Shown here: positions 1 through 979 of the stretch, piece by piece
Layout: each line of letters begins with the position of its first letter
Numbering within the stretch: position 1 is the stretch's first letter
Source: Escherichia coli
GTDB lineage: Bacteria > Pseudomonadota > Gammaproteobacteria > Enterobacterales > Enterobacteriaceae
DNA: 979 nt
Reading direction: 5' to 3' (one strand)
Assembly (NCBI RefSeq): GCF_003334315.1
Contig: NZ_QOWR01000126.1
Translations under genes and position numbers: made by a program
Notes under the pieces: model-generated
Seen by the model: the letters and a program-made list of their open reading frames with translations, nothing else
Databases searched by the model: none
What the model was told of the DNA's origin: nothing

Positions 1-438
1 AGGCCGCAGTCGGTAACCTCGCGCATACAGCCGGGCAGTGACGTCATCGTCTGCGCGGAAATGGACGAACAGTGGGGATACGTCGGGGCTAAATCGCGCC
101 AGCGCTGGCTGTTTTACGCGTATGACAGGCTCCGGAAGACGGTTGTTGCGCACGTATTCGGTGAACGCACTATGGCGACGCTGGGGCGTCTTATGAGCCT
201 GCTGTCACCCTTTGACGTGGTGATATGGATGACGGATGGCTGGCCGCTGTATGAATCCCGCCTGAAGGGAAAGCTGCACGTAATCAGCAAGCGATATACG
301 CAGCGAATTGAGCGGCATAACCTGAATCTGAGGCAGCACCTGGCACGGCTGGGACGGAAGTCGCTGTCGTTCTCAAAATCGGTGGAGCTGCATGACAAAG
401 TCATCGGGCATTATCTGAACATAAAACACTATCAATAA
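1..438 (+). CDS. insB: IS1 transposase InsB segment (C-terminal part of the InsAB' frameshift fusion transposase); 5'-partial, frame open from base 1
   Basis: The ORF track gives 61..438, but frame 1 is open with no stop from base 1, and the upstream 20 codons ([20 protein letters not shown]) also match InsB. The ATG at 61 is therefore an internal Met, not the real start. From established knowledge, IS1 transposase is made by -1 frameshifting from insA into insB at an A6C motif, which would lie just upstream of this window. Stop TAA at 436-438 lies inside the terminal inverted repeat, as is typical for IS1. Confidence 0.9.
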
Positions 439-453
439 GTTGGAGTCATTACC
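431..453. repeat. IS1 right terminal inverted repeat (IRR), about 23 bp
   Basis: ATCAATAAGTTGGAGTCATTACC; the element terminus ...CATTACC at 453 matches the canonical IS1 end from memory. The partner IRL is outside the window, so the inverted-repeat relationship cannot be checked here. Confidence 0.75.
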
Positions 454-467
454 TATGTAAGGATAAT
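440..467 (+). promoter_or_regulatory. Candidate outward-facing hybrid promoter across the IS1/flank junction (-35-like TTGGAG in the terminal repeat, -10-like GATAAT in flanking DNA)
   Basis: TTGGAG at 440-445 (3 of 6 matches to TTGACA), 16-bp spacer, GATAAT at 462-467 (5 of 6 matches to TATAAT). Motif-level only and weak. Confidence 0.2.
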
Positions 468-543
468 CAAACATCGTGTGCGCTGATGGCAGAGTAGGTG
501 GAGGACTCCAGACAGTCAAACGATAGAAAAAGATAGCCTTTAT

Positions 544-548
544 GGAGG
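544..548 (+). promoter_or_regulatory. Shine-Dalgarno (GGAGG) for the yibA-like gene, 8-nt spacer to ATG 557
   Basis: GGAGG at 544-548, followed by 8 nt, then ATG at 557, which begins MSNTYQKRK... Confidence 0.55.
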
Positions 549-556
549 TTCCTGCA

Positions 557-802
557 ATGTCAAATACATACCAGAAAAGAAAGGCAAGTAAAGAGTATGG
601 TTTATATAATAAATGTAAGAAACTAAATGATGATGAATTATTTCGCTTACTTGATGATCGCAATTCCTTGAAAAGGATTTCATCTGCCAGAGTATTACAG
701 TTAAGAGGGGGGCAAGACGCTGTTAGATTGGCAATTGAATTCTGCACTGACAAAAATTATATCCGTAGAGATATCGGAGCATTTATACTCGGGCAAATAT
801 AA
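557..802 (+). CDS. yibA: YibA-like HEAT-repeat protein, N-terminal 81 codons terminated by a premature in-frame TAA (truncated product if expressed)
   Basis: Translation MSNTYQKRKASKEYGLYNKCKKLNDDELFRLLDDRNSLKRISSARVLQLRGGQDAVRLAIEFCTDKNYIRRDIGAFILGQI matches my recollection of the E. coli K-12 YibA N-terminus with a few substitutions. The ORF track starts at ATG 542 (MEVPAM...), but that ATG overlaps the Shine-Dalgarno, so 557 is the better start. Stop TAA at 800-802. Confidence 0.65.
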   Translation: MSNTYQKRKASKEYGLYNKCKKLNDDELFRLLDDRNSLKRISSARVLQLRGGQDAVRLAIEFCTDKNYIRRDIGAFILGQI

Positions 803-940
803 ATTTGCAAAAAATGCGAAGATAATGTTTTTAATATTTTGAACAATATGGCATTGAATGATAAGAGTGCTTGCGTTCGAGCTACGGCAATCGAGTCAAC
901 GGCCAGGGAAAGATCATCAAAAGTTCACTTTTTGCACTAA
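557..940 (+). pseudogene. yibA: yibA-like gene disrupted by a nonsense codon (800-802), with a second stop at 938-940 after similarity is lost; likely a pseudogene
   Basis: Same frame downstream of the TAA reads ICKKCEDNVFNILNNMALNDKSACVRATAIESTA (803-904), still YibA-like as I recall it. It then reads RERSSKVHFLH and stops at 938-940, far short of the roughly 280-aa length I remember for intact YibA. Confidence 0.5.
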
Positions 941-979
941 ATAATTCGCATTTTATGTTTAAAAATTGAGATATTCCTT

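Follow-up and report, generated by a model that had tools for sequence, protein, structure and literature searches.

The left end of H-rptB/ISEc1 abuts a truncated yibA copy in the RhsB element of Escherichia coli

We analyzed a 979-nt stretch of Escherichia coli DNA (contig NZ_QOWR01000126.1 of assembly GCF_003334315.1), referred to below as the window; its features are collected in Table 1. Window positions 454-979 were 100% identical to the rhsB locus of E. coli K-12 MG1655, in the part downstream of rhsB-yhhH (L001 6001-6526). This places the window in the RhsB element, which lies between nikR and yhhJ. A probe consisting of positions 880-979 matched K-12 at 100% with an E-value of 4e-43, which places the break discussed below well past chance level. 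The right-hand part of the K-12 RhsB element reads, in order, rhsB, yhhH, a 32-bp vestige of an rhsA tip, a 347-bp piece of yibA (yibA'), H-rptB, 64 bp of IS1397, REP, and yhhJ. In the window, an IS1 sits directly after the stop codon of yhhH (K-12 L001 6000/6001) and ends at 453.

Table 1. Features of the window and the IS1 copies in related loci of other strains.
Feature	Position	Strand	Basis
IS1, 3' part	1..453	+	insB' ORF 61-438; matches annotated IS1A/IS1B transposase
IS1 terminal inverted repeat ATCAATAAGTTGGAGTCATTACC	431-453	+	K-12 match begins at 454
51 bp after the yhhH stop codon, rhsB-tip/yhhH cassette	454..504	+	K-12 L001 6001-6051
Vestige, last 32 bp of an rhsA-type C-terminal tip, with TAG stop at 534-536	505..536	+	blastn
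yibA paralog, 5' 347 bp (codons 1-115 plus 2 nt)	557..903	+	alignment to yibA; NF007244
Nonsense codon TAA	800..802	+	K-12 yibA and the full-length RM10042 allele both have AAA
H-rptB/ISEc1 (ISAs1 family), left-terminal 76 bp	904..979	+	inverted repeat start CAGGGAAAGAT at 904-914
TAA ending the yibA-frame read-through into the IS end	938..940	+	ORF list
IS1 inside yrhC, strain-10 type	L002 6185-6946		
IS1 inside full-length yibA, 55989	L007 6602-7369		
IS1 in place of the whole RhsB element, LR-06	L012 4249-4946		

The reading frame opening at the ATG at 557 contains 81 YibA-like codons before the first TAA; it then continues as ...NDKSACVRATAIESTA, followed by RERSSKVHFLH and the second stop. 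The original prediction, which was made from the window alone, had described the end of this frame as ...AIESTA, then RERSSKVHFLH and a stop at 938-940, and the open reading frame does read this way (...ATAIESTA). In a nucleotide alignment with the intact yibA of K-12 (L003 5338-6180), the window was colinear over 505-903, with 11 mismatches in 399 bp, and was unrelated from 904 onward. By blastn, window 505-903 corresponds to L003 5286-5684 in the K-12 rhsA locus, where the rhsA coding sequence ends at L003 5317. The pairwise alignment with K-12 yibA thus located the breakpoint: similarity is lost as had been predicted, at 903/904 and not at 904/905. Colinearity of 905-979 with intact yibA, which would have spoken against a break, was not found.

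Codon 116 still encodes alanine because GCC stands in place of GCT. Past the breakpoint, the K-12 gene continues GCT CAG CGA TGC AAG AAA AAC CCA ATT TAT TCA CCT AAA ATA GTA, which translates as A QRCKKNPIYSPKIV; the continuation of intact YibA given in the original prediction is indeed the one encoded by K-12. YibA has 280 residues, and the distal 164 are missing at the junction, in agreement with the earlier estimate of about 160. Stop codons close the two remaining forward frames at 942-944 and 967-969, rather than at 944-946 and 977-979 as had been stated. The remaining sequence had been described as AT-rich and non-coding, and this holds: the G+C content is 27.6% for 904-979 versus 34.9% for 557-903, and the segment, past the terminal inverted repeat, is a non-coding leader upstream of yhhI. 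The RERSSKVHFLH tail is a meaningless read-through into the IS end, without function, and the TAA that terminates it is fortuitous; neither is biologically significant, since the stop at 800-802 comes first in this frame.

The K-12 annotation assigns window 557-802 to the pseudogene yrhC (b4552), located between yhhH and yhhI and extending 246 bp to the TAA. This annotation halts at the nonsense codon, whereas the yibA homology in the window runs on to 903. A single A-to-T substitution, seen against K-12 yibA as well as against the RM10042 allele, accounts for the TAA at the end of yrhC. The gene linked to rhsA had been thought to be the damaged one; the locus is in fact the rhsB-linked paralogous fragment. 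Two ORF pieces matched the NCBIfam profile NF007244 "putative lyase" (YibA, PRK09687 "putative lyase", HEAT-repeat RhsA immunity protein; 285 positions, curated cut-off 275 bits) at profile positions 1-81 and 83-126, with scores of 108.9 and 39.7 bits, respectively. The matches cover profile positions 1-126 only, and a full-length YibA match was not obtained. Nucleotide colinearity with yibA is present for window 505-903 only; over these 399 bp the window is 97.2% identical to K-12 yibA, and it is 99.6% identical to the RM10042 allele. To judge from its sequence, the yibA-like piece is a gene fragment and not a functional YibA member. The yibA gene product neutralises the toxicity of the RhsA C-terminal region (RhsA-CT) (PMC3150448), and yrhC is a leftover copy of this RhsA immunity gene behind rhsB-yhhH.

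Window position 904 is the first base of H-rptB/ISEc1, and the window ends 76 bp into the element. In K-12, the element occupies L001 6451-7741 (1,291 bp); its ends, CAGGGAAAGAT...ATCTTGCCCTG, are complementary at 10 of 11 positions, and more weakly beyond. Positions 904-979 are 100% identical to H-rptB and show three differences from H-rptE. In the source strain the element is probably the same one, an identity read from the 76 of 1,291 bp that lie within the window. The suggestion that another IS end might be found past 979 was right in its idea and wrong in its place, since the IS end begins at 904. An orphan rhs fragment, also proposed, is rejected for 904-979, which matches nothing anywhere in the rhsA locus.

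In the K-12 layout, the ATG of yhhI would fall 68 bp beyond the end of the window. The K-12 yhhI, which lies outside the window, matched the NCBIfam ISAs1 transposase profile NF033564 (cut-off 70 bits) with 412.4 bits and an E-value of 1.2e-123 over positions 1-314 of 314; its PGAP product name is "ISAs1-like element ISEc1 family transposase". H-rpt was reportedly first described by Zhao et al. in 1993 (J Bacteriol 175:2799, as cited in PMC3032704). K-12 also carries H-rptE at rhsE and H-rptC1, C2, and C3 at rhsC. In copies B, E, C1, and C2, the homology starts exactly at CAGGG and the left flanks are unrelated; in copies B, E, C2, and C3, it stops exactly at CCCTG and the right flanks are unrelated. 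A 100-nt probe across the junction had a median of 5 places per genome, and the copies outside rhsB matched it from window 904/905 onward.

Members of the ISAs1 family have terminal inverted repeats of 14-22 bp starting with CAGGG and create a 10-bp target duplication (PMC11946415). The DDE transposase, the CAGGG inverted repeats, and multiple copies with sharp ends were all found for H-rpt, and the direct duplication of about 10 bp was not: at H-rptB in K-12, the left flank AGTCAACGGC and the right flank AATACAGGAC contain no direct repeat. A duplication missing at one copy points to rearrangement after insertion and is not evidence against membership in the ISAs1 family. In the K-12 Rhs elements that contain an H-rpt (RhsB, RhsC, and RhsE; L001, L004, and L005), no other component separates the H-rpt from core DNA; the H-rpt lies on the same strand as rhs in all three, and the genes on the core-genome side are yhhJ, ybgA, and pptA. 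The window gave no hit in an Rfam scan (E <= 1). A sigma-70 promoter scan across the left end of the IS found no plus-strand site from the IS end as far as the yhhI ATG, and it yielded no more sites overall than expected from shuffled sequence.

Among 5,426 complete E. coli genomes, 1,815 (about a third), K-12 MG1655 included, carry exactly this junction (window 874-933); it is old and inherited and does not belong to the source strain alone. In K-12, H-rptB is followed on its right by the terminal 64 bp of IS1397 (IS3 family; L001 7742-7805), then by REP and yhhJ. H-rptB is therefore placed between two truncated, unrelated sequences without a duplication, which argues for an IS-associated rearrangement and not for a simple insertion. 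No empty site (yibA' joined straight to the yhhJ-side flank), no simple insertion (the right end of H-rpt followed by distal yibA), and no reciprocal junction (the body of IS1397 followed by the left end of H-rpt) turned up in the 5,426 complete genomes. The 201 bp between nikR and the rhsB ATG have no similarity to IS1397; simple nesting of the element in one IS1397 copy is thereby rejected. In 166 complete genomes (e.g., strain 2013C-4282, L009 501-508), the gap between nikR and yhhJ is only 8 bp; relative to this state, the 201 bp to the left of rhsB and the REP/IS1397 remnant in K-12 are additions.

A full-length counterpart of the fragment is found at another chromosomal site. The 51 bp at 454-504 have no homology to the K-12 rhsA locus; the same sequence lies directly upstream of full-length yibA in strains RM10042 and 55989. 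We used a "restored" chimera, composed of window 454-903 and distal yibA, as query. In strains such as RM10042, the chimera was matched in one piece over 100% of its length with 99.7% identity; in 55989, where yibA is interrupted by an IS1, the match was split in two. The yibF-yibH site of RM10042 and 55989 contains an rhsB-type tip, yhhH, full-length yibA, a yibJ-like orphan, and yibG. The window differs from the full-length RM10042 allele at 2 of 450 nt, one of which is the T that makes the TAA at 800, versus the 11 of 399 that separate it from K-12 yibA. The displaced full-length yibA is itself decaying, being frameshifted in RM10042 (L006 7001-7945) and split by IS1 in 55989 (L007 6001-7723).

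The nikR-yhhJ site of K-12 and the yibF-yibH site of RM10042 have one colinear block in common (L001 1408-6450; 5,043 bp, 98.7% identity). Its left end is 1 bp ahead of the rhs ATG, and its right end is window 903, immediately next to the first base of H-rptB. Rhs tips follow a pattern of "C-terminal displacement" (Jackson et al. 2009, PMC2935791). According to the same study, the Rhs locus between nikR and yhhJ arose only in the K-12/HS/ATCC8739 lineage and has tips in common with the yibF-yibH locus (PMC2935791).

We conclude that 904-979 is almost certainly the left end of H-rptB/ISEc1 abutting a truncated, nonsense-mutated copy of yibA (yrhC), and that this is the normal structure of the K-12 RhsB element. 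The original prediction had offered a deletion or a junction with unrelated DNA; the junction stands, 904-979 being unrelated to yibA, and a second lesion of the isolate does not, since K-12 has the same junction. The steps that led to this junction we infer as follows. A cassette consisting of the rhsB tip and yhhH would have displaced the rhsA tip, leaving yibA as an orphan immunity gene, and this orphan state, with full-length yibA, would persist at the yibF-yibH site of B1-type strains. The block from the rhs ATG to nt 347 of yibA would also have been placed between nikR and yhhJ, with its right end meeting the IS end. Most likely, H-rpt inserted into yibA, to which it is joined at nt 347, and the distal 164 codons were lost afterward; ISAs1 elements normally duplicate 10 bp and H-rptB has no duplication, which makes an H-rpt insertion followed by deletion or recombination the most likely course. 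The loss could have occurred through an IS-associated adjacent deletion, through recombination between H-rpt copies, or in the course of the block's arrival at nikR-yhhJ.

Alternatively, H-rpt/ISEc1 might have been the vehicle: the 5-kb block would have been carried to nikR-yhhJ on the left end of the IS, for example through one-ended or composite transposition into an IS1397 copy, and 903/904 would be the original joint between cargo and IS. We consider this unlikely. The right-hand limit of the block common to both chromosomal sites coincides exactly with the IS left end, but at the block's left boundary there is no second IS copy or end, and the 201 bp there have no match to IS1397. The right end of H-rptB lies inside the mobile element IS1397, as expected of an insertion target; however, no direct repeats surround the block plus IS. 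The terminal, same-strand position of H-rpt in all three K-12 Rhs elements that bear one and the recent evolutionary origin of the nikR-yhhJ locus (PMC2935791) would fit with such a transfer, whereas H-rpt transposition has never been observed experimentally (PMC3032704), and an earlier event joining the IS to nt 347 of yibA would still be needed. It is likewise unlikely that the coincidence of the block end with the IS end, instead of being a deletion scar, is the record of a whole Rhs toxin locus copied to nikR-yhhJ by an ISAs1-family element entering IS1397; if it were, it would mean IS-driven spread of Rhs loci within E. coli.

The abrupt frame break in the window could by itself be taken for a new, strain-specific deletion or rearrangement in the yibA of the source isolate. 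This is highly improbable and is refuted by the base-for-base identity of the junction with the K-12 arrangement, by its distribution over 1,815 complete genomes, and by the locus, which is the rhsB-linked yrhC. A simple frameshift or local divergence in a colinear yibA, or an assembly chimera at a repeat, has next to no probability: the reading-frame change alone and the short piece between two repeats (IS1 and H-rpt), as is often seen in short-read contigs, would be in keeping with it, but 904-979 has no similarity to the rhsA/yibA locus, the alignment (unrelated from 904) rejects a frameshift in a colinear gene, and the same junction occurs in finished long-read complete genomes.

The sole private feature in the window is the IS1 whose end lies at 453; it is separate from the frame break. 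The junction between IS1 and the yhhH flank (431-462) was not found as one piece in any of the 5,426 complete E. coli genomes, and it had no matches in metagenome contigs or GTDB-representative genome contigs. This IS1 may be a simple insertion, with a 9-bp duplication of TATGTAAGG, or it may mark a deletion of rhsB-yhhH as in LR-06. This AT-rich region has received repeated independent IS1 hits (Table 1), and the IS1 of the window is a further case.

The arrangement in the window is already known and is ordinary: it is the standard annotated RhsB architecture of K-12, with the pseudogene yrhC beside H-rptB/yhhI. The analysis explains an odd-looking frame break, which carries little weight on its own, and corrects the locus assignment from rhsA-linked yibA to an rhsB-linked fragment. 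It also provides a small illustration of the decay and reshuffling of Rhs loci, with a displaced immunity gene, an IS boundary that is the end of a shared block, and a second IS remnant on the opposite side.

Compared with the K-12 H-rptB/ISEc1 (yhhI, b3484), the window has the same 76 bp, the same yibA' flank at nt 347, and the same CAGGG terminus, with no difference in the part covered. The fragment has the same start codon and frame as yibA (b3594), and the homology takes in the last 32 bp of rhsA and the spacer; unlike yibA, it lies at the rhsB locus, has a nonsense codon at codon 82, is cut after codon 115, and is without the 164 C-terminal residues. As in an orphan module, the fragment is located downstream of a complete rhs gene with its cognate immunity gene and is preceded by the vestige of a tip; neither a partial rhs core nor a PxxxxDPxGL region precedes this tip, and 454-556 contains no core homology. 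Unlike the displaced Rhs modules described previously, the one studied here has kept only 32 bp of the old tip and no core fragment, and its immunity gene has also been cut by an IS. It resembles the displaced tip/immunity modules (PMC2935791; Poole et al. 2011, PMC3150448) in that an older immunity gene lies downstream of a newer tip/immunity pair.
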